A DNA stretch of 64,000 nucleotides, from positions 1-64,000 of IMG/VR virus record IMGVR_UViG_3300033068_000963; one strand, 5' to 3'. The stretch comes from a virus. Lineage: Duplodnaviria; Caudoviricetes. The notes beneath the pieces were generated by a model. The model was not told the DNA's origin. It did not search any database and saw nothing but the letters and a program-made list of their open reading frames with translations. The translations under genes were made by a program, and so were the position numbers. Shown here piece after piece: positions 2,558-57,979 of the stretch (position 1 is the stretch's first letter; the number at the start of each line of letters is the position of its first letter).

Positions 2558-2678
2558 GTCCCTTCCCCTCCCTGATCATCAGTAGGGATGGAGTTTGAAG
2601 GAATATGGCCGCACGAGCTGGCCTTAGTGGCGCGGGACCCTGCCCCCGCCACCCGAGAGGCGTTGCGATCTGGAGGGG

Positions 2679-3449
2679 TCATGGCTTCACCGTTCCGTCC
2701 TTGTTGTAGAACGGGCACGGCCCCAAACCGCAGCGAGCACAGGTCCGGGGATACGCGTTACCGTCGCGCCTTAAGACGTGCGTGCAGTTGACCAGGCCGG
2801 GAGGCTCGCGCTTTCCAGTATCCGAGGGGTTGGCCGGGATTATGCGGTAGGCGATGATGTCGTAGGCGTAGTCATTTATGGGCGCGTGGACCCACCCGAG
2901 ATTTTCAGAGGGAGCCCGCCCCCGACGCCCGCCCCGAAGCTCATAGTCCACCACCTTCCCCGGCGCTGGGTTCTCTCCTCCGTTCCATTGGATGAAGGGG
3001 GGAGTTGAAGGATTATGGCGGCCCGATCCAGTCGTGCCTGGCTCGACTTGCGAGCCATCGGCAGGCGAAGTGACCTCTTGCCCGGTGGAGAGGGCCTTCC
3101 GCATCGCGGGGTGGTCGAGATAGGTCCCGAACACGTCGTCCAGATACTTCGGATAGCAGGGGATTTCCCGGTCTGACAGTTCGCCCGCTACGGCGAGACG
3201 GACATCATCGTCGCTGGCGATGCTCATCAGACGGGCGGCGAGTGACAGCCCAGGAGCGGAGACCGGGGAGGCGAGACCCTCCAAGTGGCTGATCAGGTCC
3301 GTGGCCGCATACATCATCTTCTCGCCAAGCTTCATGGTCGCGATGATGTCGGTGCAAGGGTCCATGCTCCATTGGCTGACAGCCGCGTCCCACGCCTTCG
3401 TCAGCCTCCCCGTCTCTTCGGGTGGGTTAGAGGTCATTGGAGCGACCAC
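2679..3449 (-). CDS. Mosaic hypothetical protein with Cys-rich C-terminus
   Basis: Long ORF in the early-left operon; CARCGLGPC. Confidence 0.6.
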   Translation of the reverse strand: MVAPMTSNPPEETGRLTKAWDAAVSQWSMDPCTDIIATMKLGEKMMYAATDLISHLEGLASPVSAPGLSLAARLMSIASDDDVRLAVAGELSDREIPCYPKYLDDVFGTYLDHPAMRKALSTGQEVTSPADGSQVEPGTTGSGRHNPSTPPFIQWNGGENPAPGKVVDYELRGGRRGRAPSENLGWVHAPINDYAYDIIAYRIIPANPSDTGKREPPGLVNCTHVLRRDGNAYPRTCARCGLGPCPFYNKDGTVKP

Positions 3450-3619
3450 AGCGTTTCGCCGGTCACCGCGTCGGTGATCTTCAGCGTGCCAGGGTTGAGC
3501 GCGGCGTGCTCTCCAAGCAGTTCCCGCGTGTCATCCGCATAGACCATGATCGGGTAGAACATCTCCTTGCGGTGGAAGATTACGGGGCGGGTCGGCATGT
3601 CGGTTCTGCGCGCGGTCAT
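3434..3619 (-). CDS. Hypothetical protein
   Basis: GGAG RBS; operon context. Confidence 0.55.
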   Translation of the reverse strand: MTARRTDMPTRPVIFHRKEMFYPIMVYADDTRELLGEHAALNPGTLKITDAVTGETLWSLQ

Positions 3620-3664
3620 GTCAGATGTCTCCGTGTTCAAGGGCGTCGCGGGCGATGTTTTCCA

Positions 3665-3973
3665 TCATTCATCTCCACTAGAGGGGGAGGCATCCAGCAA
3701 GCCGGGGTGCGCCGGGTCATTCCAGATGCGGGATGCGCGGGGCGGGTCTCGGAGCCACCGGGCTTCGTCTCGGGCGTTTGCCGCTCGCCGCATTGCGGGA
3801 GTTTTGAAGCCGCAATGAAACTGATGGTTATCGCTCGCAGATGCGATGAAGCCGGTCACGTTCGACTTCCCAGCCCTGGCCGGATCGCTGGACCGGCTGC
3901 GTCCCTTGGTGTCCCACTGGCGCCCGCAATGCGCGCAGATGAACCGATAGGGGCTGCTCGTGCGGCCCATCAC
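3665..3973 (-). CDS. Hypothetical protein (CAHC motif)
   Basis: Stop/start overlap with the upstream gene. Confidence 0.55.
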   Translation of the reverse strand: MMGRTSSPYRFICAHCGRQWDTKGRSRSSDPARAGKSNVTGFIASASDNHQFHCGFKTPAMRRAANARDEARWLRDPPRASRIWNDPAHPGLLDASPSSGDE

Positions 3974-4302
3974 GCATCACCTTCAGCAGGTTTGGGGGAG
4001 GCATCCGATAGGCTGGCGGTGAAGGTGAGAGCGGCCTTCTCCATCTTCGTCTGAACGTCAGGATCTAGTTCGCTCCAGGGCACGACTTTGGAGCCCGGTT
4101 CGGCAGCGGCGACGGCATCGAACAGCCTCTCCCCCAGGCTCTTTGATCCGTCATATCCAGACGGTTGGGCTTCGGAGCGGGCGGCGTCGAGGATCGCGCG
4201 GGCGACGCGTTGGTGCAGATGGTTCCGCCCGGCCCCGATCATGCCCCGACCGCCGTCGTGGATCGCTTTCAGCGCGAGCGTTTCAGCTTCCTCATAGGTC
4301 AT
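3970..4302 (-). CDS. Hypothetical protein
   Basis: Coupled ORF beginning MTYEEAE. Confidence 0.55.
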   Translation of the reverse strand: MTYEEAETLALKAIHDGGRGMIGAGRNHLHQRVARAILDAARSEAQPSGYDGSKSLGERLFDAVAAAEPGSKVVPWSELDPDVQTKMEKAALTFTASLSDASPKPAEGDA

Positions 4303-5080
4303 GGTCAGCGTCCTTGTTCTGGGAGGCGAGGAGAAGGGGTTCGTCCGTTGCCGAGAGTGCTGCCTCGCTGCGCTGCGGCCCCGAGAGGTCGGTTTCTGCT
4401 GGAGGGGCGGCCCTGACGATAGGGACCAGCGTGAAGCCCTCCCGCCGATCAATCACCGTCCGGCCTAGGGGTTGGTTCGCCGCCTCGCAGTTCGGACAGC
4501 CGCCAGGATAGCTGCCGTTGCCCATCAGGGTGCGCATGGGGCGCATTTCCCCCTCGTGGCCCTCCCAGCCGCAGGCCTTACAAACCTTGTTGTCGTATCG
4601 CCTCCATTTGTGCGGAGCCGCATCCCAATGGGCAGGAAACTCCGCTTCAAGCGGGGCGAGGAGCGGCAGGAGGACAGGCTCAACGCGCGGGCGGCAGGTC
4701 TCGCAGAATCCCACGCCGATGTGGTTCTGTACGGTGACGAAGCCCTGGTTTAGGTCGAATGCCGCGAAGGTCTTCGGCGCGCTGTAGTTCGGCGCTCCCT
4801 TGCGGTGATACTTGCCCGCTCGGGGATAAACGAAATAGCCGTCCTTGCGACCGCAGCACGGGCAAGATGAGACGCGAGTGCGGCTCAGGGTCAAACGTCC
4901 CTTCTCGCGCGCTGTCGCCACAATCGTCGCCACCATCGCGGCTTCCTTTTCGGAGAGCCCCGACAACGACAGAGCAAGCGTATCCTTGGCCCGGTCCACG
5001 ACGGCCTGCGCCTCCGCGCTCACGAGCCCGTCAAGGTGCGCGGCTTCCGAAGCCGTTAGTTTGAGGGTGAACTCGCCCAT
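4292..5080 (-). CDS. Multi-CxxC zinc-binding protein
   Basis: CPCC, CETC, CKAC and CPNC. Confidence 0.65.
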   Translation of the reverse strand: MGEFTLKLTASEAAHLDGLVSAEAQAVVDRAKDTLALSLSGLSEKEAAMVATIVATAREKGRLTLSRTRVSSCPCCGRKDGYFVYPRAGKYHRKGAPNYSAPKTFAAFDLNQGFVTVQNHIGVGFCETCRPRVEPVLLPLLAPLEAEFPAHWDAAPHKWRRYDNKVCKACGWEGHEGEMRPMRTLMGNGSYPGGCPNCEAANQPLGRTVIDRREGFTLVPIVRAAPPAETDLSGPQRSEAALSATDEPLLLASQNKDADHDL

Positions 5081-5233
5081 CAGCCCCGCCCTCCATCGGA
5101 GTGCTGCGGCAAAGTCAGGACGGGGTTGGGGCCCCGTTCCGCGCAAGGCTGGGAGCGGGAGGCCAAGTCATTGTTTTCACGCATTACTCTTGCTCCAGGG
5201 CCTTAACCCTATCTGCGGCTTGTTCTGTAGGGG

Positions 5234-5398
5234 TCATGAAAGCCCCCAGAAAATGGTGAAAAGGCTCATGATGGAGAGCAGCGCCAACGCCAACTTCAGG
5301 CTGATGTTGAGCAAGGTGTCCGACTTCCACATTGCGAACAGGAGCCCGGCAAGAGCTGCGGCGACATAAGGCTGCGATGCGATGATGAGGTCTTTCAT
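5234..5398 (-). CDS. Small membrane protein (54 aa, not in the ORF track)
   Basis: MKDLIIASQPYVAAALAGLLFAMW..LALALLSIMSLFTIFWGLS; ATGA overlaps at both ends. Confidence 0.6.
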   Translation of the reverse strand: MKDLIIASQPYVAAALAGLLFAMWKSDTLLNISLKLALALLSIMSLFTIFWGLS

Positions 5399-5610
5399 TG
5401 GTCACCTGTCGGATTGAGGTAGGCCCTGCCGGCCGGAAGGATCTGGAAGCCGGGGTTAAGGCCCAGGCGGCGAGGAACGATCAGCCCGTCGTCGATCAGC
5501 CCTTGAAGGTGGGGCAGGGCCTTCTCGTAGTCCTCGGGGCTGTAGCCGCAGCGGCCCTTGGTGCGGGCGGCGAGTTCGGAGAGGAAGGCGCGTTCGGTTG
5601 GCGTTCTCAT
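5395..5610 (-). CDS. Winged-helix-like hypothetical protein
   Basis: L..LIDDGLI......FQILPAGR pattern. Confidence 0.55.
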   Translation of the reverse strand: MRTPTERAFLSELAARTKGRCGYSPEDYEKALPHLQGLIDDGLIVPRRLGLNPGFQILPAGRAYLNPTGDQ

Positions 5611-5942
5611 CGGAAGCCCCGCGACTGGATTTTCTGTTTGGACTTCGGCCAAATCCCGAGGTGCTTGGCCCGCATCCGGTAGACGTGGGATTTCTCCTCA
5701 ACGTCCTCGGCGGTCTTCTCGCGGTGCTTGTCGCGCAGGGCCGGGGCAAGGTTGCTCTCGCGATGCTCTCCGCCGTTGATCAGGGCCACGATGTGGTCGC
5801 AGTCCCATTCCTCGCCGGCTCGGATCTTCCGGCCTGACAGGTGGCAGATGCCGCCGTGCCGCTCGAACACGCGCAGGCGCACGCGGGGCGGGATGGGGGT
5901 GTCGTGGGTCTTGCCCCGCCACTCGGGGACGCTGCGGGCCAT
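5607..5942 (-). CDS. HNH endonuclease
   Basis: DHIVALINGG..RESNL....H..KT. Confidence 0.9.
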   Translation of the reverse strand: MARSVPEWRGKTHDTPIPPRVRLRVFERHGGICHLSGRKIRAGEEWDCDHIVALINGGEHRESNLAPALRDKHREKTAEDVEEKSHVYRMRAKHLGIWPKSKQKIQSRGFR

Positions 5943-6127
5943 CAGGATTTCCCCCGCACATCCCGCCCGCCGGTCAGCCGCTCAGCGACGCGGAACCGGC
6001 CGCACCAGTGGTGGCGGAAGACCTGAACCGTCATCGGCCCCTCGCGACATTCCAGGTTGGCGGCGCCGATGGGCGGCTCAGCGCCGTCCGGCCCCCGACC
6101 CCAAGCGCAGTTCTCGCAGGCCCTCAT
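5942..6127 (-). CDS. Small Cys-rich protein
   Basis: CENC..C..WCG.F. Confidence 0.6.
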   Translation of the reverse strand: MRACENCAWGRGPDGAEPPIGAANLECREGPMTVQVFRHHWCGRFRVAERLTGGRDVRGKS

Positions 6128-6441
6128 GCCGCCCTCCGCTGTTCACCAGCCGCAGCCGCGCCGGCCACATGGCCCGCCCGCGAGAGCGCCCACCGGATCG
6201 ACTGGCGGTCGCACCCGAAGACCAGGGACAGGCCGTATTGCGAACACCCGGTCTCGCGGATGATCCTGGCCCAGGCACGGTGACGGGCGGCGATGTTGGC
6301 GGCGCCGCGGTCGAACCCTTCGACGCGGTTGAGCCCCATCACGGCCTCGACGGATGCCCCGGCCTTGCGGGCTTCCTCGGTGGCGATGCGGATTACGTCG
6401 GCCCTGGTGGGGCGGCGGATGGTTCGGGGTCTATGGAGCAC
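6124..6441 (-). CDS. DnaA domain IV-like HTH protein
   Basis: V.AVMG..R....AARH.AW...S...L..VFGCDRQSI resembles the Bac_DnaA_C pattern. Confidence 0.55.
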   Translation of the reverse strand: MLHRPRTIRRPTRADVIRIATEEARKAGASVEAVMGLNRVEGFDRGAANIAARHRAWARIIRETGCSQYGLSLVFGCDRQSIRWALSRAGHVAGAAAAGEQRRAA

Positions 6442-6731
6442 TACGCAGCCCTCCCGAAGATCCGAACCGTCGGCGCGGCCTGCCAGATCACCAAGTCCTC
6501 GCCGCCTTCGAGCACCTTCAGCCCGTCGCGGCCCTGGGGCAGGATGTGGAGGACGCCGCGGCGATCCACGACCAGGCCGTCGGTGAGCATGGTCTGGCCG
6601 ATGTTCCAGACCTGGCGGCGCCGCATCGGAAGGAACATGCCGATCGCGTCGGCCAGTTCGAGGATGGTGGCCGGGCGCTCGGCGAGGATGCGAAGCATTT
6701 GGTGGCCGCGACCGTTGACGCTGTAGGTCAT
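6441..6731 (-). CDS. Winged-helix protein
   Basis: ATILELADAIG HTH. Confidence 0.55.
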   Translation of the reverse strand: MTYSVNGRGHQMLRILAERPATILELADAIGMFLPMRRRQVWNIGQTMLTDGLVVDRRGVLHILPQGRDGLKVLEGGEDLVIWQAAPTVRIFGRAA

Positions 6732-7435
6732 CAGCCCTGCTCCCGGCTCGCTAGGGCCTTGCGGCGCCCGCGGAACGCTGCGTTGAGGCTATTGGCGAGG
6801 CCGGGCGACGCCTCATGCAGCCGCCCGAAGGACTCAGCCATGCCGGGCCCGTTCGTGTGGGCATCGATCTCCGCGACACTGCGGAAGGTTTCCAGCAGGC
6901 GGTTCTGCTCCGAAGCCCAGACCGCCGGATCGTAGTCGTCGGCCTTAACGCGATCGCCAGGGAAGCCGCCATCGTCCACGTCGTGCTGCTCAACCTCTTC
7001 GCGCGGCGGGGAGCGTCGGGCTTGGTCAAGCGGCTCGACCGGCGCGCGGAGCGCCTTCACGGTATAGGCCTGTTTCTGTCCGCGCTTGACGGCGAGCGGC
7101 CACGTCGTGTCGCGCGGGATGTGGCTCATGTGCGAGATGCGGATCCCGCCCACCTTGATCCCGCCGAACTGAACGCCCTCGTCGCGGAAAAGCGTCATCC
7201 GCTTTCCGATGTAGTCCTTGCCCTCGGGCCCCCACGCAAAGACCAGAACCCGGCGCATTGATTTGCAGGGCTTGTAGGGCTTGCGGTCATCGCCTTCGAA
7301 GTGGACCGCGATGGGCTGCTCGCCCTCATCGCAACCGCGCACGTCGGTAATAGTGATGGTGATCGAGCCGCCGATCAGGTCGTCGGAATTTAGCTGGTCG
7401 GACTTAGCGATGATGGTTTTGGAGAGGTTGGTCAT
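6731..7435 (-). CDS. Probable recombination partner (ssDNA-binding/annealing) of the exonuclease
   Basis: SDQLNSDDL motif; coupled to YqaJ; function inferred from synteny. Confidence 0.55.
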   Translation of the reverse strand: MTNLSKTIIAKSDQLNSDDLIGGSITITITDVRGCDEGEQPIAVHFEGDDRKPYKPCKSMRRVLVFAWGPEGKDYIGKRMTLFRDEGVQFGGIKVGGIRISHMSHIPRDTTWPLAVKRGQKQAYTVKALRAPVEPLDQARRSPPREEVEQHDVDDGGFPGDRVKADDYDPAVWASEQNRLLETFRSVAEIDAHTNGPGMAESFGRLHEASPGLANSLNAAFRGRRKALASREQG

Positions 7436-8112
7436 ATCTGAATTTCATCCCGTTCAGGGCGGCGTTCCGTGGAGCGGAAGCCGTTCTTCATGAGTTGGTC
7501 GTGGTAGGCGGCCGTCACCTCGACCACGCGGGCCTCGAAGGCGGCGGCGGCGGTAAGGATGGCGTCTTGGATTTCGGGGATCGGCTCGGCGCGGATCACG
7601 GCCATCGGGAGGCCTGCGCTATAGGACAGGAAGTCCCACCACTTGCGCTCAGTCACGAGAAGGCAGGTTTGCACCTGAATGACGTGTTCGACCGGGATGA
7701 CGCCCTTGGCGATGGTCTCGATCTGGAAACGCTGGCGCCGGGACTTGGACTCGATCCCGCCGTCTTCCCCGACCAGGCCGTCCGGTGAGCAGCCGAGCGT
7801 AAAGCCCCAGCGGTCGTTGGTGATGAAGCCGACCTGTTCGACCTCTGCGTAGTGCCGGCTGTAGAGGTCGCGGGCGTCGAACTCGTCTTCATGGCCGCGC
7901 AACATCTCGTCGCCGAGGTAGGTGGCCTCGATGTGGCCGGAGATCCGTTGCGCCGCGAGCTCGTAGACGTGCGCGCGCTCCTTGTCGTTGCTGGCGGCCT
8001 TGGCCGTCGGCGTGACGATCTTCGACATTTCCGACGCCGTCAGCAGACCCAGGCGGGCCGCGAACCATTGCTCGGTGCCTTGGACGAGATCGTGGTGGAT
8101 GGTGATCGCCAT
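7432..8112 (-). CDS. YqaJ/lambda-type exonuclease
   Basis: QGTEQWFAARLG.LTAS, CSPDGLV, ESK and QVQ motifs. Confidence 0.9.
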   Translation of the reverse strand: MAITIHHDLVQGTEQWFAARLGLLTASEMSKIVTPTAKAASNDKERAHVYELAAQRISGHIEATYLGDEMLRGHEDEFDARDLYSRHYAEVEQVGFITNDRWGFTLGCSPDGLVGEDGGIESKSRRQRFQIETIAKGVIPVEHVIQVQTCLLVTERKWWDFLSYSAGLPMAVIRAEPIPEIQDAILTAAAAFEARVVEVTAAYHDQLMKNGFRSTERRPERDEIQI

Positions 8113-8390
8113 CAGGCCACCCGCGCCCCGATGGCCTGAGCCGTCGTCAGGTTCGTCTCGATGGTGTTGGAGAGCCTGAGGTAGACGTCGCGCTGGCCCG
8201 CCGGCAGCGAGGTCAGTTCGGCGGCCTCGGCCAGGCGCCCGGCGATGTCGACAAGATCGGCGTGCAGGGTTGCGCGGGCCTCGAAGGCGACCTCGCGGGC
8301 CTCGGCTTCTAGACGGCGCACCCGGTCGCCGACGGTCTCGCGGCTGCGGAGCGTGTCGTCGGGGCGGATGGGGGTCACGGTCTGGGCCAT
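8112..8390 (-). CDS. Hypothetical protein
   Basis: GGAGG RBS; operon context. Confidence 0.65.
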   Translation of the reverse strand: MAQTVTPIRPDDTLRSRETVGDRVRRLEAEAREVAFEARATLHADLVDIAGRLAEAAELTSLPAGQRDVYLRLSNTIETNLTTAQAIGARVA

Positions 8391-8392
8391 GC

Positions 8393-8596
8393 TCAGCCCT
8401 CCGCCTTGTCTTGGGTCGGGCGGTAGGCTTCCCCACCCTTGCGGCCGGCAGATGCGGCGAGGTCGCGGTTCTTGGCGAAGGAGCGTTTCTCGCTCGGCAC
8501 GCTGGCTCCCCCTTTTCGGGCGATCTCCAGGCGCTTTGCCGGGTCCATCGCGGCGAACCCCTTCGGGCGGGCCTTCGGGATGGTGGTGTCGGTCAT
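8393..8596 (-). CDS. KGG-repeat general stress protein (YciG/GsiB/Con-10-like)
   Basis: GFAAMD..EIARKGG..SF..RDLAASAGRKGG. Confidence 0.85.
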   Translation of the reverse strand: MTDTTIPKARPKGFAAMDPAKRLEIARKGGASVPSEKRSFAKNRDLAASAGRKGGEAYRPTQDKAEG

Positions 8597-8597
8597 G

Positions 8598-9011
8598 TCA
8601 GGCGTCCTCGGGCATGGCGCATCGCAGCGCCGTTTCAGCGGCAAGCCGCCGGATGATCCCCGCCTTGACCGCCTCGACGGCCTCGGGGGGCAGGTTGTGG
8701 GAGAAGTGGACGGAGGCGGAAGCCCGACCGGCGATCATCTGGCCGTGGAGGACCGCGCGCTGGGCGGGGTTGAGGTTGCGCCACTTCTGAATGTCGAAAT
8801 CGCCGAACAGGATTCCCTGCGGCGACCGTGCCTGCATCCGCCCGACCGAGAAGCCCATCGACCCCAGCCAGTCCGTCGCGGCGCGCATGGCGCTGAACGC
8901 TCCCTCGCCTTCGAAGACGTGGGACTTGAACACGGCGGCGTGGAGGTCTTCGGCGGCGTCGATGTGCTGACGCAGGGCCGAGGCGGTGGCGAGGTGCGCG
9001 AGCGCGTTCAC
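8598..9011 (-). CDS. Hypothetical protein
   Basis: GFSVGRMQ..P.GI..GDFDIQKWRNL. Confidence 0.65.
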   Translation of the reverse strand: MNALAHLATASALRQHIDAAEDLHAAVFKSHVFEGEGAFSAMRAATDWLGSMGFSVGRMQARSPQGILFGDFDIQKWRNLNPAQRAVLHGQMIAGRASASVHFSHNLPPEAVEAVKAGIIRRLAAETALRCAMPEDA

Positions 9012-9145
9012 AGCTTCACCGCCTCAGGCATGTGCGTCAGCGCCCAACCGGCCCCCATGACCAGCACCCCAAGCAGCACGTAGGCGGCAAGAGCGAGAAT
9101 CAGGACCCAGAGGCCGGAGCGTTCGGGGATGAGGGGCAAGCGCAT
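9008..9145 (-). CDS. Small single-TM protein (45 aa)
   Basis: LWVLILALAAYVLLGVLVMGAGWAL; coupled at both ends. Confidence 0.55.
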   Translation of the reverse strand: MRLPLIPERSGLWVLILALAAYVLLGVLVMGAGWALTHMPEAVKL

Positions 9146-9285
9146 CAGCCGATCCTCGCGCGGGCGACTTCGGCCAGGACTTGCGCCCAGGTCATCACGG
9201 TCCAGAGACCGGCGATCAGGACGGCGGCGGCGAAGGTGTCGTGGAGGCCGCGGCGCAGGGCGTAGGAGATCAGGCGGGAGGTCAT
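9145..9285 (-). CDS. Small single-TM protein (46 aa)
   Basis: FAAAVLIAGLWTVMTWAQV; coupled at both ends. Confidence 0.55.
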   Translation of the reverse strand: MTSRLISYALRRGLHDTFAAAVLIAGLWTVMTWAQVLAEVARARIG

Positions 9286-9515
9286 TTCAGACCCTCCGGC
9301 TTGGCGACCGCCGGGCCCCAGACGAAGGCGTCGAGAAGCTGCGGCCGGTCGACGCCGGGCACGAAAGCCATCATGGCCTCATCGCCCTCGCCGTTGTTGT
9401 CGTAGACCTGGACAACCTCCCAGTCGGGAGAGTTCCAGTCCTCGCCCTCCGGCTGGTCGGCGAGCCGCAGCTTTGCCCACCAGTGGCCCTCGCGGGCGGG
9501 AGTCGGGTAGGTCAT
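9282..9515 (-). CDS. Hypothetical protein
   Basis: EGHWWAK..WEVVQV; coupled. Confidence 0.65.
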   Translation of the reverse strand: MTYPTPAREGHWWAKLRLADQPEGEDWNSPDWEVVQVYDNNGEGDEAMMAFVPGVDRPQLLDAFVWGPAVAKPEGLK

Positions 9516-9703
9516 CAGGCGTCTCCATCCATGAGGGCTTTCAGGCCTTCCACGAAGGCCTCGAGTTGCGGCGTCGTCCGCGCCCAGCAGAGCTGATCGA
9601 AGGCGTAGCGGATCACCTCCTCCAGCATCTGGCCGGGCTGTCCGAAGGTGTCTTCGAGGGCGATCTTCGCGATGGCGCGGCCGGGATCGGAGGCGGCGCT
9701 CAT
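9515..9703 (-). CDS. Hypothetical protein
   Basis: Coupled ORF. Confidence 0.55.
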   Translation of the reverse strand: MSAASDPGRAIAKIALEDTFGQPGQMLEEVIRYAFDQLCWARTTPQLEAFVEGLKALMDGDA

Positions 9704-10005
9704 TGGCCGGTCGCCTTGGCGATGGCGGCGCGGGCTTTGTCGCCCCACGGGTTGCTCTCCTTGAAGTAGAAGCTGTAGGCGCCGATGATCTCGGTCAGGG
9801 CCGCCAGCAACTCGGGAGCGGCGGCGATCAGGAGGGCGTCGGCCTCCGACACGTCGATCCAGCGGTCCACCGAAAGGCCGTAGTCGCCGATGTCAGCTTG
9901 CGGGCTTGCGACATAGTCGCCGGTTCCCGAGCGCATCAGAGAAGTGGGCTGGTCCTTGCCGTCGAGCGCCCAGAACCACGGCGCCGGGGTGTGTTGAGCC
10001 GTCAT
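9700..10005 (-). CDS. Conserved phage protein (HTP.PW / LIAAAPELL family)
   Basis: HTPAPW and DA.LIAAAPELLAAL...ARAAIAKATG. Confidence 0.8.
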   Translation of the reverse strand: MTAQHTPAPWFWALDGKDQPTSLMRSGTGDYVASPQADIGDYGLSVDRWIDVSEADALLIAAAPELLAALTEIIGAYSFYFKESNPWGDKARAAIAKATGQ

Positions 10006-10406
10006 TGTCCGAGCCTCTGAAAATCGGGTTCAAGGGGATTGTCGCGGCGCCGGTCGTTCCCCTCTTCGGCGTCGGCCAGATCGTCCGCAGCGTCGGCCTC
10101 AGCCTTCGCGACCTCCTCAGCCGCCAGCCGCAGGATCATCGGTTCGAGGTCCCGCTTGAGATCGAGCAGGTGCAGCCGGATCACGTCGGCGATGGCGCTC
10201 TCCGGGTCGGCGTAGCGGGGAAGGCCTCGGCCCTTCGAGACGAAGGTCACGGCGTCCTCGTGCTGCTGGATGCAGGCGTCGAGGTCGTTGAGCGCGAAGA
10301 GGCGGATTTCCTCGGCCTTCGCGGCGATGGCGAGGCCGGTGGCGACCGGGACCGGCTTGGCGCCGTCGGTCAGTTCCCAGGGGTGGAAGGCGTTCATCCC
10401 GCTCAC
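10002..10406 (-). CDS. Hypothetical protein
   Basis: Coupled ORF. Confidence 0.6.
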   Translation of the reverse strand: MSGMNAFHPWELTDGAKPVPVATGLAIAAKAEEIRLFALNDLDACIQQHEDAVTFVSKGRGLPRYADPESAIADVIRLHLLDLKRDLEPMILRLAAEEVAKAEADAADDLADAEEGNDRRRDNPLEPDFQRLGQ

Positions 10407-50231: not shown

Positions 50232-50264
50232 AGGCCCCTCGGTTCACGCCGGGGGGCCTTCTTC
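50232..50264 (+). terminator. Terminator ending the late operon
   Basis: aggcccctcgg..ccggggggcct followed by tcttc. Confidence 0.7.
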
Positions 50265-50517
50265 ATGTCTGGGCCAAGGCGGCGTCCAGCGCCGCGTCGA
50301 ACCCCATCCCGCCCGCGACAGAGCTCAAGACGGTGCAGACGATCTCAGGCGTGTATCCGTATAGGTCCCACGCCTTCTCAATCGCAATGAAGGCGTCCAG
50401 GGCGTCGGGGTTGCGCATGAGCGCGACGTAGGCCTTGAGGTCCGCGTCGGCCGCCCACATCTGAGCCTCCCAGCCGTCGTACTGGGCCTGCATCTTCATC
50501 TCCATGTCGCTGCTCAT
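50263..50517 (-). CDS. Hypothetical protein
   Basis: Coupled leftward operon. Confidence 0.6.
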   Translation of the reverse strand: MSSDMEMKMQAQYDGWEAQMWAADADLKAYVALMRNPDALDAFIAIEKAWDLYGYTPEIVCTVLSSVAGGMGFDAALDAALAQT

Positions 50518-50705
50518 TCCGGCTGTCCCTGTTGCCATTGGCCCTCCGCTCGACACCACGAGTCGGCGCATTCCTGACAGAGGTTCTCGCCGTCCAGATT
50601 GGTGACGCGAGCGCGGTCATCGTGGTTGACGCAGCCCGGCGGCATGACTTCGTGCTCGTCATCCAGAAAGGCGTTCAGGATGGGGATGTGGAGATCGCCG
50701 GTCAT
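50514..50705 (-). CDS. Small Cys/His protein
   Basis: CVNH....LCQEC. Confidence 0.6.
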   Translation of the reverse strand: MTGDLHIPILNAFLDDEHEVMPPGCVNHDDRARVTNLDGENLCQECADSWCRAEGQWQQGQPE

Positions 50706-50977
50706 TTCAGGCCATCCACCATCGCGATTGCGCTGTCCGCCCCGCGCCAAGCTTCGATGCTGTCGGCGTCCTGATCGTCGTCTTCCCAGTTCGAGGGCCG
50801 GGCGTGGTCAACGAGATCGCAGATCACCTCATGCAGAGCGGCGCGCTCCAAGAGGGCGGCTGTCAGCGCCTCCCCGGCCCGCTTGTTGTAGTCGCGGAGA
50901 TCCATTGCGCCCTCGGTTGCCGACCGGCGCCAGAGAGCGATCTTGTCCTGCAACAGGGTGAACTGATCGCGGGTCAA
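50702..50977 (-). CDS. Hypothetical protein
   Basis: Coupled ORF. Confidence 0.55.
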   Translation of the reverse strand: MTRDQFTLLQDKIALWRRSATEGAMDLRDYNKRAGEALTAALLERAALHEVICDLVDHARPSNWEDDDQDADSIEAWRGADSAIAMVDGLK

Positions 50978-51213
50978 AGGTCCGCCTCCAACAGTTCGGC
51001 GCACCGCTCAAGGCAGAAGCGCAGGTCCGGCCCCATCATGCCCGGAAGGTCGGAAAGCTCAGCGGTCTCCGACCAATACCGCGCCATGGACGCCACAGAG
51101 GCGCGAGAGGCGTCGTCGCGCTTGGTTCGGCAATGACCTACGCAATAGCGGCTGTCGGCGCACAGGCGGCGCATTTCGCAGCCGTCACCGGTCTTGAAGG
51201 GTTCGCTGCTCAT
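50974..51213 (-). CDS. Cys-rich hypothetical protein
   Basis: Coupled ORF. Confidence 0.55.
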   Translation of the reverse strand: MSSEPFKTGDGCEMRRLCADSRYCVGHCRTKRDDASRASVASMARYWSETAELSDLPGMMGPDLRFCLERCAELLEADL

Positions 51214-51548
51214 GGGAAGCGGGCTCCAACTTTCTGAAGGTACGCGACGACGGCCTTTGCGCCGTCCCGCGAGGTCCAGTCCATATCCATGCTGTCGCTG
51301 ATAGCGTCAGCGATGTCGTCTTCGAGGTCGCCCCAGTCGACTCCCTCGTAGACCCACGCGTGCTCAGTGATCTTGAGCGACCAGAGCGGACCGCGAAGGC
51401 TCAGCCGGAAGGCGTCGGCCGCCGTGCGGTTTTCCCATTTCAGCGCCTCGTTCGGGTCGCTGGTGAACGTGCCGTGCGCGGCGTTTTCCAGCCATCGGCC
51501 CTCGTCGTTTTCCAGGAACCACCACGTCTTCGGGTCAGTAGTCGTCAC
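51210..51548 (-). CDS. Hypothetical protein
   Basis: FTSDPNEALKW..R..A; ITEHAW. Confidence 0.6.
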   Translation of the reverse strand: MTTTDPKTWWFLENDEGRWLENAAHGTFTSDPNEALKWENRTAADAFRLSLRGPLWSLKITEHAWVYEGVDWGDLEDDIADAISDSMDMDWTSRDGAKAVVAYLQKVGARFP

Positions 51549-51876
51549 GGTCGTCGCTCCCGGCCCATTCCATCTGATGATCGCGGTCGCTCGCCTCCGA
51601 CAGCATGGCTTCCGTGTGGTTCTGAGCGATGGCCTGAAGGATCGCCGCTTCGTCGCGCTGATCGAACGGGCCTCCGACGCCATCGACGGAAAGCAGCTTC
51701 AGGTCCTCGACCTCATCAGGGGCGCCGGGGTCGTAGCCCTCTGGCGGGCCGTAGTTGCCGGTTTCGGGTGAGCCCCAGGCGACGGTGAAGGAGACCTCCA
51801 CCTCGACCTCATCGGCCTCGGGAATGTCCCCGGTGCTGTAGGGCAGGGTGCAGGCGTAGGTGTAGCGGGTCGCCAT
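51535..51876 (-). CDS. Acidic hypothetical protein
   Basis: YGPPE.YDP..PDEVE. Confidence 0.65.
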   Translation of the reverse strand: MATRYTYACTLPYSTGDIPEADEVEVEVSFTVAWGSPETGNYGPPEGYDPGAPDEVEDLKLLSVDGVGGPFDQRDEAAILQAIAQNHTEAMLSEASDRDHQMEWAGSDDRDDY

Positions 51877-52067
51877 CACTCCCACCCCGCGCTCAGGCCG
51901 TGGTGGGGCGTGAAGGTGTACTTCTTGCCGTTGGTGGGGTTCCAGAGGCGGTAGTCGTCGGGACGGTAGTCGCCGGGGGTGGGGATGCACTCGACCACTT
52001 CCAGGGTCAGGAAGCCGACCTTGACGGAAGCGCCGGGGGTCCAGTCTTGCTTGGTGCGGGTGATCAT
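51876..52067 (-). CDS. Small protein; its 5' end is the repeat shared with the window start
   Basis: MITRTKQDWTPGASVKVGFL..Y.FTPHHGL; GGAG RBS. Confidence 0.8.
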   Translation of the reverse strand: MITRTKQDWTPGASVKVGFLTLEVVECIPTPGDYRPDDYRLWNPTNGKKYTFTPHHGLSAGWE

Positions 52068-52069
52068 GG
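51994..52069. repeat. Exact direct repeat, copy 2
   Basis: Identical to 1-76. Confidence 0.97.
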
Positions 52070-52084
52070 GGTGTCTCCGTTGTT

Positions 52085-52142
52085 GATTGAAGATACGAAA
52101 CGTACCCAATCACGTCAACGACTAAATGTACCCAATCACGCT
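52085..52142 (-). promoter_or_regulatory. PL/OL of phage 2
   Basis: TTGACG-17-TATCTT; two copies of GTACCCAATCACG. Confidence 0.75.
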
Positions 52143-52145
52143 TTT

Positions 52146-52481
52146 TTAGCCCGCCGCTTTGGAAAGCCGGATCGCCCGCTCCCGTTCCTCGGGGCTCATT
52201 TCCTGCCACGCCGCCTCCGCAGCATCTCGCCTGGGCGGTCCCTTGCCGGTTGTCAGCCATAGGGCGTTGACGTGGAAAGCCCGCGTGTAGCGTTCGACGT
52301 ACTTCTGCTTCAGCCCCTCGGCCTGGCGAAGGCCCTGCTCGTGGCTCTTATAGGTGTTCTCGTTCCAGCCATGCGCCTGAGCTGCGGAACGGGCGGACGT
52401 GAAGTGCGCCTTCTCCCTTGCCCAGCGCAAGCGCCCGCCAATGGTGTCCAGGTCCGGGGGTTCGATTGAGAACTTAGCCAT
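52146..52481 (-). CDS. Short XRE repressor without peptidase domain
   Basis: IGGRLRWARE..NTYKSHEQG..WL.TGKG. Confidence 0.85.
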   Translation of the reverse strand: MAKFSIEPPDLDTIGGRLRWAREKAHFTSARSAAQAHGWNENTYKSHEQGLRQAEGLKQKYVERYTRAFHVNALWLTTGKGPPRRDAAEAAWQEMSPEERERAIRLSKAAG

Positions 52482-52489
52482 CGGCGCAG

Positions 52490-52555
52490 AATGTACCCGC
52501 CGATTGGGTACAATGGGTGTTGACGTGATTGGGTTCATGACGTACCCAATGGGGT
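52490..52555. promoter_or_regulatory. OR/PR/PRM of phage 2
   Basis: GATTGGGTAC, CGTGATTGGG and GTACCCAAT match OL; TTGACG. Confidence 0.75.
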
Positions 52556-52789
52556 ATGGTTCAGAGCTTCAAAGACATCATCGAAAAGTTCGGCGGCCCG
52601 GCCAACTTCGGTCGTGCGGTCGGCATGTCCCCCGGCGCCGCAAAGCAGGCGGGCCGCCGTGACAGCATCGCCGCTGAGTGGTTTAGCGCCACGGCCCGCG
52701 CTGCTCATGAGCGCGGCTTCGGCGAGATTACGGAAGCCAGATTGGCCGAGTTGGCGGAACAACGCCGGACGGCTCCGAAGGCCGCGTAA
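52556..52789 (+). CDS. cro: Cro-like protein
   Basis: DIIEKFGG..F..AVG....RRDSI; similar to phage 1 Cro. Confidence 0.8.
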   Translation: MVQSFKDIIEKFGGPANFGRAVGMSPGAAKQAGRRDSIAAEWFSATARAAHERGFGEITEARLAELAEQRRTAPKAA

Positions 52790-53054
52790 TGCCCTGCCTC
52801 GCCATCACCTTCGGACAGGCTCCACAAGCCGTACATCGGCGCTTGAGCCAATCCGCCACGATGGCGTCGCGCACCCTGAGCATGGGCCGCTTTGACGGCG
52901 GGTTTTCCAACACCTTGAGCGCCCGCTTGACGCCCTTTCGGCAAGCCTTCGTGGCCTGCTTGTCCACCACTGCACGCAACAAACCACTCACCCACGAAAT
53001 CGCAGGACCGGCCACCATGACCGGTTGCGGCGAACCCTGGGGGAGCGAGTTCAC
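52728..53054 (-). CDS. Possible antisense protein
   Basis: ORF overlapped by the open sense frame 52789-53235; unclear which frame is functional. Confidence 0.35.
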   Translation of the reverse strand: MNSLPQGSPQPVMVAGPAISWVSGLLRAVVDKQATKACRKGVKRALKVLENPPSKRPMLRVRDAIVADWLKRRCTACGACPKVMARQGITRPSEPSGVVPPTRPIWLP

Positions 53055-53231
53055 CGACCGCGTTACGCGAACTACGACTCACAACCTTGGCCGTTGCAAT
53101 CGCCTCGCGGTTGATTTGCTCCCCGGTATGGTGCGGCAGGACGCCACGTCGATCTGGCGCCAAACGCATTTTGGGTGTCCGGGGCTCGACGCTCAACGTG
53201 TGGCTCTCGACACTCATAGCGGGGTGGCGGG

Positions 53232-53906
53232 ATGAGCGTTCGCACCGAGATCATCGGAGACTCGACGCTGTATCTCGGGGACTGCCGGGACATCCTTCCG
53301 ACGCTTGGCAAGGTGGACGCGGTTGTGACCGATCCGCCTTATGGGATCAGCGCCGCCAAGAAGGGGGCGCACTCCTCGATCCGAGACAACGCGTCCTGGG
53401 CGCCTGCGGATTGGGATGATGGTCGACCGCCCGCTCTGATCTTTGATGCCCTTCTGTCCGCTCGCGAGGTGGCCATCTGGGGCGGCAATTATTTCGCCGA
53501 TCTCCTTCCGGCCTCTTCGGCTTGGCTGGCATGGGTGAAGCCGGAGGCAGATACAGGATTCTCGCTCGCGGACATGGAGCTTTGCTGGACCAACCTCGGA
53601 TTTGCAGCTCGGACCAAGAGGCTTCCCCGTCGAGATGGGAATGATCATCCGACGCAGAAACCCGTCGCCGTGATGGCCTGGACGCTCGGTTTTGTGTCGT
53701 CGCAAACTATCCTCGACCCCTTCATGGGCTCGGGAACCACTGGTGTCGCCTGCGCCAATCTTGGCCGCAAGTTCATCGGCATTGAGCGCGAGCCGTCCTA
53801 CTTCGACATCGCCTGCCGCCGCATAGAGGCCGCTTACCGCCAGCCCCGGCTGTTTGACGAGCCGGTGGCTAAGGCCGTCCAGCCGTCCCTTCTGGAGTCG
53901 CTGTAA
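53232..53906 (+). CDS. Beta-class N6-adenine/N4-cytosine DNA methyltransferase
   Basis: TDPPY, HPTQKP and DPFMGSGTTG. Confidence 0.92.
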   Translation: MSVRTEIIGDSTLYLGDCRDILPTLGKVDAVVTDPPYGISAAKKGAHSSIRDNASWAPADWDDGRPPALIFDALLSAREVAIWGGNYFADLLPASSAWLAWVKPEADTGFSLADMELCWTNLGFAARTKRLPRRDGNDHPTQKPVAVMAWTLGFVSSQTILDPFMGSGTTGVACANLGRKFIGIEREPSYFDIACRRIEAAYRQPRLFDEPVAKAVQPSLLESL

Positions 53907-53926
53907 TGCGCTCCCCCCATTCCAAT

Positions 53927-54142
53927 TCACGCACACCCGCGAGCCCCCCCAGGGTGCGCGTGAGGGGAAGGGCTGTTCTCCAGCGGTCCTTCCCCAACCT
54001 CATCCAGCAACGCTCTAGCGCGTTCGCTATGGGCGTCGGCAAGCTTCAACAGCCCGCCGAGCCCGTCTCCGTTCTCCCTCACGAAACACCTCAGCTTGCC
54101 GGCGAGTGTCGCGTGATCCAGTGCGCGTTCGATAGCCTCCAT
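53927..54142 (-). CDS. Small antisense protein, homologous to 13833-14057
   Basis: GAGGA RBS; homology to the phage 1 ORF. Confidence 0.7.
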   Translation of the reverse strand: MEAIERALDHATLAGKLRCFVRENGDGLGGLLKLADAHSERARALLDEVGEGPLENSPSPHAHPGGARGCA

Positions 54143-54171
54143 GTCCGTCCGTCCTCTGTGGAGCCCCCACA

Positions 54172-54639
54172 ATGACAACATGGATGGACGGTTTCGTGCC
54201 CGACGATGGACAACTTATCCGGCGCACCATGGGCGAAACGCTCGCTCAAATGGTCCGCAACCGGTGGCCCCATAATACCGCAAAGCACGTCGCGCGGGCA
54301 TGGGATTTAGACCCCACGACGGCGAAGAACCTGACGAAGGGGCACGCCAGCGAGCGGACCCTGACCAAGGCGATCCGAGCGGAAGGGTTCGAGTTGCTTG
54401 ACGCGCTCGGCCACGCCCTGACCGGCCAAACCCACCACGAGTGGGAAGAACAGAAACTCACCCGCATCATCGAGGAAGCCAACAATGCAGCATCCAACGC
54501 TCAAGAGCGTGTGCGGCGGCTTCATTCACGCCGCGCTCTCCTGGCTGAAGAGGCCGGGACCGTGGGCGAAGCTGACGCTGGGTCACACGCTGACCCTACG
54601 CGGTCTGCGCCGCCTCGCAAAATCCGAAACGCTGGCTGA
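54172..54639 (+). CDS. CII-like HTH regulator
   Basis: TAKHVARAWDL...TAKNL..G; position. Confidence 0.6.
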   Translation: MTTWMDGFVPDDGQLIRRTMGETLAQMVRNRWPHNTAKHVARAWDLDPTTAKNLTKGHASERTLTKAIRAEGFELLDALGHALTGQTHHEWEEQKLTRIIEEANNAASNAQERVRRLHSRRALLAEEAGTVGEADAGSHADPTRSAPPRKIRNAG

Positions 54640-54711
54640 CCTGGGTGAGGCTGATGTCTCGCGCGGACGACGGCTGGCGAACGAAGCAACCGACGAACTG
54701 AGGGACAGAAC

Positions 54712-54897
54712 ATGACCTTCCTCCTCAAAGCCCGCCAATGGTTCACCTCCCACAAGGCTGAACGTATCGCCCAAGCCCGCAGGATCGCCCTGGACGCCTA
54801 TGACGAGGCTGTAAGGCGGAAGGATACCCGCAAGCAGGCTGAACGCTGGCTGGCGGCTTTCAGGGCCACAAATGACGCGCTGCGGGGTGGGCTGTGA
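54712..54897 (+). CDS. Hypothetical protein
   Basis: AV.RKDTR motif; RBS. Confidence 0.6.
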   Translation: MTFLLKARQWFTSHKAERIAQARRIALDAYDEAVRRKDTRKQAERWLAAFRATNDALRGGL

Positions 54898-55385
54898 TGC
54901 CGATGTACTCCTACTTCGATGAAGACGACGCGACCGCGTTTGAGATCACCTCTGAAGAGGTCGAGGCGTGCAGCGACATTCCCCAACTGGTCGAGTGGCA
55001 TGATGGCCTTGAGGAGATGTCGGAAGACCTCCGCGCGCAACTCCAGGCGGCGGCGATCTTCAACCGACACGACGACTCCTGGGTGTTTCGCTGCACTCAA
55101 AAGCTGGGCTGGACAGGGCGTGGCCGAACTCGGGTTCGCAAGCGCCTGAGGGCTCTGGGATACGAGGTAAACCCCCAAGGGAAAGAGCTTCAAAACCTGC
55201 GAACGGAACACGCTCAACTGAAGGCAGAGAGCGCCGTGGCGGTGAAGTTCCTCCGCATCGCCGCGCTACAGATGGTCCCGGCTGAATACAAGGCGATCAC
55301 TCAGGCCGCCCTGGCAGAGGTCGAGGCCGACGCCAAGAAAGCTGAAGACCGGAAAGCCTACTTCGAAGCGAGGAAGGTGGCATGA
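54894..55385 (+). CDS. Hypothetical protein
   Basis: Coupled ORF. Confidence 0.6.
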   Translation: MMPMYSYFDEDDATAFEITSEEVEACSDIPQLVEWHDGLEEMSEDLRAQLQAAAIFNRHDDSWVFRCTQKLGWTGRGRTRVRKRLRALGYEVNPQGKELQNLRTEHAQLKAESAVAVKFLRIAALQMVPAEYKAITQAALAEVEADAKKAEDRKAYFEARKVA

Positions 55386-55741
55386 CCTGTCCCAACTGCG
55401 CCAGCATGGCGGCGGAACTCGCTGAGCTTCGGAGCGCCCTAGGGCTTGCCGAGATGAGCGGAGCGGTTTTCGCCGTGCGCGAGGCTCTTGGCCTGAGCCC
55501 GACAACCGCCCGTCTGGTCCTGAAACTATACAGCGCGGCGGGTCGCCCCGTCGAGAAGAAAGCCCTGGATTCGGTCTTGTCCGAAGGGGTCGGGGGCCAA
55601 TGCCTAAAGGTCCATATCTGGCGCATTCGCCAGTTGGTGGGCGCCGACCTGATCGAGACCGTCCCCGGCTATGGCTACCGGCTTTCCCCGAGCGGGATGG
55701 ACTGGGTTGGCCTGATCATCAGCCCGAAAGTTGCAGCATGA
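55382..55741 (+). CDS. Stand-alone OmpR/PhoB-type winged-helix protein
   Basis: LKVHIWRIRQ....IETVPGYGYRL. Confidence 0.8.
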   Translation: MTCPNCASMAAELAELRSALGLAEMSGAVFAVREALGLSPTTARLVLKLYSAAGRPVEKKALDSVLSEGVGGQCLKVHIWRIRQLVGADLIETVPGYGYRLSPSGMDWVGLIISPKVAA

Positions 55742-56055
55742 CCGACGTTTTCACAACCGGCTGGGGCTGGAACGTCCCGGCGCCCATCGTTCCGCGCCCT
55801 ACCACAACGATGAAGACAATCCTTGCGGAGGTTGCCGCTGATCATGGCTTGCCTCCGTCCGCCATCACCGGAGATCGGCGCTTCATCCACCACGTTCGCG
55901 CCCGCCAGGACTTCATGTGGCGAGCCCGTCAGGTGAAGTGGCTGGACGGCAAGCCACGCTACAGCCTCCCCCAGATCGGCCAATTCGTCGGCGTTGACCA
56001 TTCCACCGTTCTGCATGGGGTCCGCACCCACGAGAAGCGCATGGGGGCCAACTGA
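55738..56055 (+). CDS. DnaA domain IV-like HTH protein
   Basis: I.G.RR....VRARQ.....SLPQIG...G.DHSTVLHG. Confidence 0.85.
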   Translation: MTDVFTTGWGWNVPAPIVPRPTTTMKTILAEVAADHGLPPSAITGDRRFIHHVRARQDFMWRARQVKWLDGKPRYSLPQIGQFVGVDHSTVLHGVRTHEKRMGAN

Positions 56056-56450
56056 TGCTCAAGCCCTGGACCAGATCCGAAGACGACAGGGTCAAGAACG
56101 ACTGGCGGGATGGCGTTATCGCCCCCGTCACCGCCAAGGCGCTTTGCCGGTCTGCAAGGGCCGTCCGTCACCGCCGAAGCCGCCTGGGGCTATCTGCCGA
56201 GGATCACACGCCTGATGTCGAGCGTGAGCGCCTGATCAACCTGCGCGCCGCTCGCGCGTCTACGGCGCTTCAGGCGCAACGTCTCAGGGCGATCCCAGAA
56301 ACGGCCAACCGTGATGACACCTATGTCGCTGCGTGCATGGCGCTGGGAGGGTTCTGCGCTCTGTCGGAGCGGAGGATGCCGAGGGGCGTGGTCGTGGTGA
56401 GCCTGCCGCTCGTCTGGCCCAGCAAGACCGCGCAGGGGAGGGCTGCGTGA
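56055..56450 (+). CDS. Myb/GcrA-N-like HTH protein
   Basis: WT..ED......A..L.RS..AV..R..RLGL. Confidence 0.6.
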   Translation: MLKPWTRSEDDRVKNDWRDGVIAPVTAKALCRSARAVRHRRSRLGLSAEDHTPDVERERLINLRAARASTALQAQRLRAIPETANRDDTYVAACMALGGFCALSERRMPRGVVVVSLPLVWPSKTAQGRAA

Positions 56451-57292
56451 CCCACCCGTGCCTGCCACTGTGGATTGACGACTATGACGCCGCCACGTCT
56501 CACCTGACGGCGGCTGAAGACGGCGTTTATGGGCGCCTGCTGCGGCTGGCTTGGCGCACGCCAGGGTGTTCGCTGCCGAACGATCACGCCTGGATAGCCC
56601 GCAAGATCCGACTGTCCGCAGAGGACTTCGAAACTGTCGCCAAGCCGGTGCTGGATGAGTTCTTCAAGGTCCAGCGTGGGCGTCTCACTCAGAAGCGGCT
56701 CAAGGCCGAATACGACAACATCTCGCGTAAGAAATCTGCGAGGCAAGGAGCCGGTAAAAAAGGCGGCGACGCCAAGGCCCTGAAAAACAACGAAAATGAT
56801 CCTAGCAATGCTACCGTTTTGCTAGGAGACACGCGCGCGTTTCCTGAACCTAAATCTGAACCGGACCCTGAAGTTATAGAACCCACCATCTCCAAGGCGG
56901 GCGTGCCCGTTTGGAAAACGATGCTGGAGGAAGCGATCTCCACGGCGGGCGACATGGCCGACATGACGCGCACGGCGATGAACCACGCCGCCGATCTCCG
57001 AGCCCTCGTTGAGCCCAAATCTGGCGAGCCCTGCGAGTGGGCAGAGGTCTTGGTGGCAATCGAGATGGTGGCGATGCGCCAGCGCCAGCGCGGTAAGCTG
57101 ATCCAGTCGTGGGGCTGGGTGAAGGACGACGCCCTGGCCCTCCGAGACAAGCGCCTCAACGCCGTGAACCCGGCGCCCAACGTGGTCCCGATCACCGGGG
57201 CGCGTCCCTCAAACCTCACCGAACAAATCGGCGCGAACAACGACGAAGCGCGCCGCCTCGCCTTCGAACGCATGGATGCTGAAAATGGCTGA
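56447..57292 (+). CDS. YdaU/DUF1376 replication initiator
   Basis: P.WIDDY...T.HLT..E.G.Y..LL...W; QKRL..E; AG.KGG. Confidence 0.85.
   Translation: MTHPCLPLWIDDYDAATSHLTAAEDGVYGRLLRLAWRTPGCSLPNDHAWIARKIRLSAEDFETVAKPVLDEFFKVQRGRLTQKRLKAEYDNISRKKSARQGAGKKGGDAKALKNNENDPSNATVLLGDTRAFPEPKSEPDPEVIEPTISKAGVPVWKTMLEEAISTAGDMADMTRTAMNHAADLRALVEPKSGEPCEWAEVLVAIEMVAMRQRQRGKLIQSWGWVKDDALALRDKRLNAVNPAPNVVPITGARPSNLTEQIGANNDEARRLAFERMDAENG
56780..56880. other. Candidate replication origin of phage 2
   Basis: AT-rich patch with CTAGCAA/TTGCTAG repeats inside the initiator gene. Confidence 0.5.
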
Positions 57293-57803
57293 TCGCCTCG
57301 ACATCGCCAACGCCCTGGAAAGCCTCGCCGTCCACTGTCGCCCCCCTCTGATGAGCGTGGAAGACCGCTCCCGCTGGATGGTGGATTGGTGTTCCGACCT
57401 CGCCAGCTTCCCCATTGAGGCGATCAAGCTGGCCTGCACCCGCTGGCGCCAGAGCGAGAACACTCGCTTTCCCACGCCCGGCCAATTGCTGCCGATGGTC
57501 CGCGCCGTTCTGCCGGCCAAGGGCGACGGTCCGAAGATCGAGGCATGGCGCCCGATCAGCGACGAGGAATACCGGCAGCTTCCGATCCGCGACAAGATCC
57601 GCCACCTCCAGATCGTCCGCTCCGAGCTGATGACTGCCGCAGGGCCGATGCTGGTCAATGAGGGGAAGTTCAAGGGTCGCCTCCTGACGCCGGATGAGAT
57701 GCCGGCCAAGTGGCATGAGGCCAGGGCCAAGGCGAAGGTGATCGACGCCGAGATCAGCCGTTTGCGTGGGGCGATCAAGAATGCCCAGGAGCGCGCCGCA
57801 TGA
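57285..57803 (+). CDS. Helicase loader/inhibitor-like replication protein
   Basis: W..DL..FP..AI..AC..WR.....FPTPGQL. Confidence 0.65.
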   Translation: MADRLDIANALESLAVHCRPPLMSVEDRSRWMVDWCSDLASFPIEAIKLACTRWRQSENTRFPTPGQLLPMVRAVLPAKGDGPKIEAWRPISDEEYRQLPIRDKIRHLQIVRSELMTAAGPMLVNEGKFKGRLLTPDEMPAKWHEARAKAKVIDAEISRLRGAIKNAQERAA

Positions 57804-57979
57804 TGCCCGTCACTGAAGCTGCCGCGCAGCGCGTGGCCGATATCAGGGGCGAGGGTTGGCGCTGGTCTCCCTCTTCCAGCACGCAAAACCCCTCGGGTGG
57901 CGAGCAAGACGAGCCACTAAGGCAAGCTCCGGGAGGCCCCCAAACCCTTTCCCCCTCCCACCCCGAAAGGCGATAGACA

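Follow-up and report, generated by a model that had tools for sequence, protein, structure and literature searches.

The window analysed here, a stretch of 64,000 nucleotides, is the first 64 kb of IMG/VR virus record IMGVR_UViG_3300033068_000963 (Duplodnaviria; Caudoviricetes), which has 96,174 bases in all. Three related short sequences in it, copies A, B and D, are members of a dispersed DNA repeat that probably marks the joints between exchangeable gene and domain modules and serves as a swapping junction rather than as an RNA like the put RNAs of phage HK022. The copies are homologous, they are conserved at the level of the DNA, their positions match mosaic breakpoints, presence and absence forms exist, and the element occurs in both orientations. 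We infer that recombination at the element is the cause of the shuffling. A preliminary description of the window, made from the letters and without database searches, had proposed either an undescribed antitermination or processing RNA or a junction for shuffling early-gene cassettes. The second proposal is supported by a conserved island between unrelated flanks, by common segments that end at its edges, by the existence of domain-less as well as domain-bearing forms and by reassorted variants within the element.

The repeat family and the mosaic joints

The element is a repeat of 70-90 bp, and most copies have a CTCCAG motif near the start, a palindrome of the form TGGC...GCCA and a C/T-rich end. 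An nhmmer profile for which no copies but those outside the window were used, and which was run on both strands of the whole 96-kb record, recovered D with E=4e-19 and A and B with E=0.0026 each, and returned nothing else below E=10. The relatedness claimed for A, B and D in the preliminary description is thereby upheld, and the letters quoted there for the copies are found where it had placed them. One 11-mer is the same in A and B, and one 17-mer differs between them at a single position; four matches to the pattern of the 17-mer were found against 0.56 expected. A covariance model describing only stem 1 of the palindrome was applied to 225 kb of DNA from relatives and to complete related records. 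Together with nhmmer it gave 21 copies in 169 kb, two more were found in locus L072, and the family comprises at least 23 copies in 14 phage contigs. Each phage has three to six of them, all between the recombination genes and the integrase gene. The hairpin occurs in allelic types, of which type 2 differs from type 1 at 8 of 19 positions with the pairing kept. Exact and gapped patterns of the A/B core, scanned against IMG/VR and one genome per GTDB species, gave chance matches only (AT-rich or unrelated coding DNA, and one Cys/Gly-rich gene end in a Burkholderiales genome). A flank-anchored pattern gave L072 as the sole true new copy, with 10 unrelated matches (one coding motif in eight, and two others). 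No copies outside this phage group were found in these pattern scans.

Self-comparison divides the record into three tandem prophage-like units, the third lying beyond the window. The preliminary description had placed the copies in two phages: A, C and D do belong to unit 1 (about 88 to 52,000) and B to unit 2, but the units number three and not two. Nearly the same nucleotides as in D are found in nine other contigs. A occupies a 120-nt gap with a 256-amino-acid open reading frame (ORF) on one side and a gene for a 77-amino-acid zinc-ribbon-like protein on the other, and identical copies of A follow the same gene in L049 and L050, the identity ending at the next start codon. The mini-ORF that bears A is in the same frame as the linker and the usual gene tail have in relatives. 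Since the domain gene of L033 ends with exactly the tail of this mini-ORF, and the linker part of A is in the frame of D, A can be read as linker plus tail without the domain between them. The nearest relative of B (L046, 4207-4281) forms the C-terminal tail of a 94-amino-acid protein. The sequence C, formerly described as a weaker copy, is indeed a relative in a distant subfamily with a second member (L034, 839-901), but the covariance model missed it. C has two 9-mers in common with A at the 5' end and one 11-mer in common with the type-2 linker, and its 3' part is an island in 10 loci.

All copies in the window are oriented with transcription, as the preliminary description had it, but this does not extend to the relatives. 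Three copies lie inverted inside genes and are translated in frame on the other strand (L044, 7458-7525; L045, 8336-8402; and positions 77-144 of the contig of L072). Two untranslated copies adjoin the integrase gene (record positions 84396-84465, and L037, 1435-1505) and are about 95% identical between the two phages. Further sense copies include one in L037 (7269-7340) with a degenerate hairpin.

The match between the element and the edges of exchanged segments is seen at several scales. The 70-nt element has a mean identity of 92% in nine type-1 contigs; the flanks have 52-63%, which is background, and the core of the domain that follows has 60%. Six islands of 30-120 bp (J1-J6, Table 1) stand in the same order in 12 loci, and longer common segments stop at their edges. 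The whole operon from the exonuclease gene (exo) to the excisionase gene (xis) looks like an array of cassettes between standard joints, with variable or unrelated DNA between the islands. The early regions of units 1 and 3 likewise have in common only patches of 30-89 bp, at 93-100% identity, with diverged stretches between them. Between unit 1 and L049, 516 bp are 98.5% identical, exactly from D to the start codon after A, and the DNA on both sides is unrelated. In L031 the gene downstream of B is 93% identical, yet a different gene replaces the ORF that bears B. L072 and L039 are 97.6% identical upstream, and in L072 the linker joins straight to the J5 tail with 435 bp missing; this second domain-less form was found independently of A. 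Reassortment is also visible within 70 bp: hairpin types 1 and 2 each occur with both tail variants, and because all four combinations exist, variants inside the element must have been reassorted.

The proteins built around D show the same arrangement. The form to which D belongs is the commonest in the family, and its copies are translated in frame as the linker ahead of the domain. A search of 5.8 billion proteins found 22 that have this linker-domain pair. They begin with N-terminal modules that are unrelated to each other, Lar-like ones among them, and the core of the domain is variable, with QWNGG.NP, W and YRI as its invariants. AlphaFold2 gives the small domain a confident small beta fold (pLDDT 87), and a fold search against the PDB gave no match. 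The DNA of 14 of the 22 was examined, and the linker is almost identical in nucleotides across contigs from different samples. In L035 the small domain occurs twice in tandem. On the minus strand, the 3' ends of the linker (2999-3030) and of the domain (2836-2850) are direct repeats of each other over about 12 nt, apart from one indel. The domain cassette lies between these two repeats, which could account for a clean loss of the domain. A different frame (2876-3058, minus) contains an Arg-rich ORF that starts at an ATG inside the D hairpin and is open in relatives too; it is probably an artefact of G+C-rich DNA.

Weighing the readings

On the reading we prefer, the element would provide a short stretch of portable homology, and recombination by the phage or the host would use it to exchange, remove or add modules with the frame kept. 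Whichever way it faces, a copy inside an ORF would be translated as a low-complexity linker; a copy between ORFs would occupy a short coupled mini-ORF. D may then represent the intact form, with the linker before the small domain, A the same linker fused to the usual tail of the gene after loss of the domain, and B another orphan linker. That A is instead an empty site which never gained the domain is less likely than domain loss.

It might be argued that only a flexible protein linker and decayed gene remnants have been conserved, so that the similarity reflects common descent of coding sequence and the DNA itself has no role. The 13 copies at the D locus are all in frame, with lengths that are constant or differ by whole codons, and A and B are readable as remnants of linker-domain genes. 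The type-1 copies, however, differ by seven amino-acid-changing substitutions to one silent, parts of A and B are in a different frame from the intact copies, and the same element DNA is translated on both strands; for these reasons the peptide does not explain the conservation. The near-identity of the two untranslated copies, and the far stronger conservation of the element than of the folded domain after it, also speak against this explanation, which we consider quite unlikely. The preliminary description had raised conservation of the encoded peptide as a possible objection to its own proposal, and the conservation proves to be at the level of the DNA. A more active role for that DNA has also to be considered, in which the element is a mobile palindromic mini-element in the manner of a MITE, a REP or a Rickettsia palindromic element (RPE), inserts either way, is tolerated in frame and creates the junctions. 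It has a palindromic core, occurs in both orientations at different junctions of co-oriented genes and in coding, mini-ORF and untranslated settings, is confined at three to six copies to one region of each phage, and has in the RPEs a precedent for in-frame insertion (PMC10969869). Within the same flanks beside the integrase gene, moreover, unit 3 has an untranslated copy (record 84369-84466, minus) and unit 1 about 215 nt of other DNA (window 490-660). Against such mobility, the flanks of 13 copies have neither consistent terminal inverted repeats nor target-site duplications, with the 5' CTCCAG motif in common; A alone has a 12-nt inverted pair, whose 3' arm is the next gene's Shine-Dalgarno sequence. 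Neither a transposase nor a RAYT-like gene was noticed, in work that included no search aimed at them, sites with and without the element itself did not turn up as a clean pair, and the pattern scans found no copies outside this phage group. We think this explanation unlikely, and hold it equally improbable in its more general form, that of an orientation-independent active mini-element of phage accessory operons that is either itself mobile or the target of a phage-encoded nuclease. Were it true, the element would insert or break DNA at the joints and so bring about in-frame domain shuffling, and the hairpin would be the structure recognised.

Another alternative is a cis-acting RNA, in which the sense-strand structure acts on the operon transcript through antitermination, RNase processing, stability or translational coupling. 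A, B and D had been folded by eye into two stems. Stem 1 is present in A (12 pairs) and D (7 pairs), but in B it has two internal mismatches and is not part of the minimum-energy fold. Stem 2 amounts to 3 bp of complementarity and is not a conserved feature of the family, being absent or different in L046 (4207-4281), in type 2 and in B, and the tail is not conserved either. What speaks for an RNA is that stem 1 is kept in eight of the nine sequence types found by the model, with one pair seen as U-A, G-C and C-G, that every wobble pair is a G-U when read on the strand of the element, that the gene after A has a Shine-Dalgarno sequence with which the 5' end of A can pair, and that most copies are co-oriented with the operon. 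The three independent copies inverted inside genes are difficult to accommodate, and in the one from L072 the G-T position of type 2 is kept on the element's strand and becomes an A-C mismatch in the mRNA; hence the wobble pattern follows descent and not the transcript. The hairpin is broken or absent in B, L037 (7269-7340), C, the unit-3 linker, L040 and L052, an alternative hairpin wins the fold in some type-1 copies, and the folding energies of A, B, C and D are like those of shuffled sequence (z from +0.9 to -2.0). The majority of copies are translated. The operon has its head near 8.1-8.4 kb, and A and D, its final features ahead of the excisionase-like gene, are about 5 kb away from there (promoter positions are inferred); copies in general lie kilobases from the likely early promoters. 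A simple scan found no terminator-like site downstream of A and D on the relevant strand and no promoter- or terminator-like sites at the copies. The window has no Rfam matches at gathering thresholds, and the regions of A, D and B gave noise only at E up to 5; a match to an existing family, which would have removed the novelty claimed earlier, is thus not what was found. We regard an RNA function as very unlikely. The put-type antitermination or processing RNA of the preliminary description is not upheld, given a single stem, ordinary folding energies, promoter-distal positions, mostly translated copies, three inverted ones and two untranslated ones placed by the integrase gene.

A second perfect hairpin of 7 bp is found in L039 (1524-1594), where it overlaps the right arm of stem 1, so that the two folds are mutually exclusive; in the other type-1 copies it has one mismatch.

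Several points weigh against the swapping junction as well. The pairing of stem 1 has been kept through changes on both sides, with 93% of cells paired against 13-44% when the partner column is slid, a count that comes from few independent events and from an alignment fitted to the model, and that relatedness inflates. This pairing suggests a constraint on nucleic-acid structure which a junction model leaves unexplained; descent, or maintenance at the level of the DNA, probably accounts for the palindrome. The sample is small, with about 10 distinct sequence types, and many copies come from one locus in phages that are related to each other. The match with breakpoints is a correlation, and passive homologous recombination does not by itself explain inverted copies inside co-oriented genes. 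If the swapping junction is nevertheless accepted, the element is a natural example of small phage proteins being built from swappable modules by means of common DNA, with orphan, domain-less and inverted forms as a record of the events. It is also a warning that motifs with hairpins, when repeated in the early operons of phages, can turn out to be coding junctions and not regulatory RNAs, and that mini-ORFs such as that of A can be remnants of deleted cassettes. The element is an example of familiar phage mosaicism, and the palindrome kept through compensating changes is the one feature that this ordinary explanation leaves over.

Comparison with known systems

The modular theory is reportedly due to Susskind and Botstein. 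In lambdoid phages, modules can be exchanged by homologous recombination at short conserved flanking sequences (PMC2327257). The element resembles these boundary sequences in being a short near-identical stretch at gene or domain boundaries, with unrelated flanks and with common segments that end there, and a phage recombination exonuclease is present here as in the lambdoid linker systems. Unlike the lambdoid sequences, it often lies inside an ORF as a linker, occurs in both orientations, contains a palindrome with its pairing kept and has orphan copies in mini-ORFs. The marks of boundary sequences in mosaic phages are found here, namely near-identity amid diverged flanks, a boundary position with segment ends, and signs of recombination, which are computational only.

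Other repeats resemble the element in part. In T4-type phages shuffling takes place between cassettes of repeated stem-loops (PeSL) (PMC2839356, PMC4122927); these too are short stem-loop motifs repeated in the most plastic region of the genome, where recombination between copies shuffles small genes. PeSL are intergenic, however, and carry a sigma-70 promoter and a working terminator, whereas the element showed no promoter in our scan, has no U-tract and is mostly translated. RPEs are likewise palindromic repeats, of about 100 bp, lying in frame in unrelated protein genes (PMC10969869), but they are chromosomal, number dozens and interrupt housekeeping genes; the element is found only at the module joints of one phage operon, and its mobility is a proposal. 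Of the properties of MITEs, REPs and RPEs, it has both orientations, unrelated sites and tolerance in frame, and lacks terminal repeats and target duplications. The put RNAs of HK022 are two-stemmed, adjoin promoters and are not translated; like the element they are about 70 nt long, come as two mutually similar copies per phage and belong to early operons (PMC9378689). Two conserved stem-loops, a site by the early promoter and a sense, untranslated RNA are features of put that the element does not have.

The setting of the element has a parallel in the exo-xis region of lambda and the Stx phages, which is early-transcribed and non-essential, encodes multi-domain proteins and includes the modular ea22 gene (PMC10834534). 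That region, too, lies between the recombination exonuclease and the excisionase gene. The accessory operon described here, with the recombination genes on one side and the genes for excisionase and integrase on the other, can be called exo-xis-like, as an apparent counterpart in position and architecture only.

Feature positions and surrounding genes

Table 1. Positions of the copies, joints, modules and neighbouring genes in the window. The covariance model scores of A, B and D are for sequences that were themselves used in building the model.
Feature	Position	Strand	Evidence or remarks
Copy A core, orphan linker with long stem 1	2589..2663	-	Covariance model, 49.8 bits
42-codon mini-ORF bearing A	2554..2682	-	Start ATGA-overlaps stop of 256-amino-acid ORF; stop ATGA-overlaps start of 77-amino-acid gene
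Copy D, type-1 linker element, in frame within 256-amino-acid ORF	2999..3069	-	Covariance model, 84.8 bits
Copy B, orphan linker in second prophage unit	57886..57959	+	Covariance model, 50.1 bits
58-codon ORF bearing B	57800..57976	+	Start ATGA-overlaps stop of upstream gene
Copy C, distant subfamily, common C-terminal tail of unrelated proteins	4300..4420	-	89-bp patch 94% identical in unit 3; N-terminal parts unrelated
J1, gene junction (stop, Shine-Dalgarno, start)	3656..3695	-	97.5-100% identical, 11 loci
J2, in-frame joint (APVSAPG)	3246..3276	-	87-95% identical, 8 loci
J3, element D and first conserved motif of small domain	2947..3066	-	76-98% identical, 12 loci, flanks diverged
J4, 3' end of small domain (DIIAYRII)	2836..2865	-	84-100% identical, 10 loci
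J5, usual 3' tail of domain gene, Shine-Dalgarno and next start, fused to A	2552..2590	-	92-100% identical, 7 loci and unit 3
J6, junction before excisionase-like gene	2330..2367	-	92-100% identical, 6 loci
256-amino-acid modular ORF: variable N-terminal module, linker, small domain, Cys-rich C-terminal extension	2679..3449	-	
Small conserved domain (QWNGGENP ... YRII), cassette after linker	2838..3020	-	phrog_11995, E=9e-9; 22 homologues
Integrase gene (458-amino-acid ORF, so called in the preliminary description)	786..2162	+	77% DNA identity to unit-3 counterpart
Excisionase-like helix-turn-helix gene, last of operon	2142..2327	-	PF12728, phrog_66
YqaJ/RecE-like recombination exonuclease gene, first in operon of A and D	7432..8103	-	PF09588, E=9e-14; phrog_149, phrog_434

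Unit 1 is bracketed by an 87-bp direct repeat (1-87 and 51994-52079, 97.7% identical), and a 53-bp repeat connects it with the start of unit 3 (record 84316-84368 versus window 438-490). A terminator-like hairpin lies at 504-520, in the unit 1 DNA beside the integrase gene. Two other origins of the element were considered and dropped: integrase arm-type sites, A and D being more than 2.5 kb from the 87-bp terminal repeat, and a tRNA-like origin, for which ARAGORN gave nothing.

Besides the exonuclease of this phage, the RecT and NinB encoded in L046 are in keeping with module exchange by recombination. The 77-amino-acid neighbour of A, used as a query in IMG/VR, gave no related loci, and the relatives found in the phage collection have in common only the exonuclease, HNH and terminase genes; HNH endonuclease genes also lie near the element. 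At J5, J6 and J1 (2545-2600, 2315-2375 and 3640-3710, minus), where stop and start codons overlap, a pyrimidine-rich run 4-12 nt upstream of the purine-rich Shine-Dalgarno sequence is complementary to it. The arrangement resembles hairpins that would keep the ribosome-binding site covered until translation of the upstream gene.

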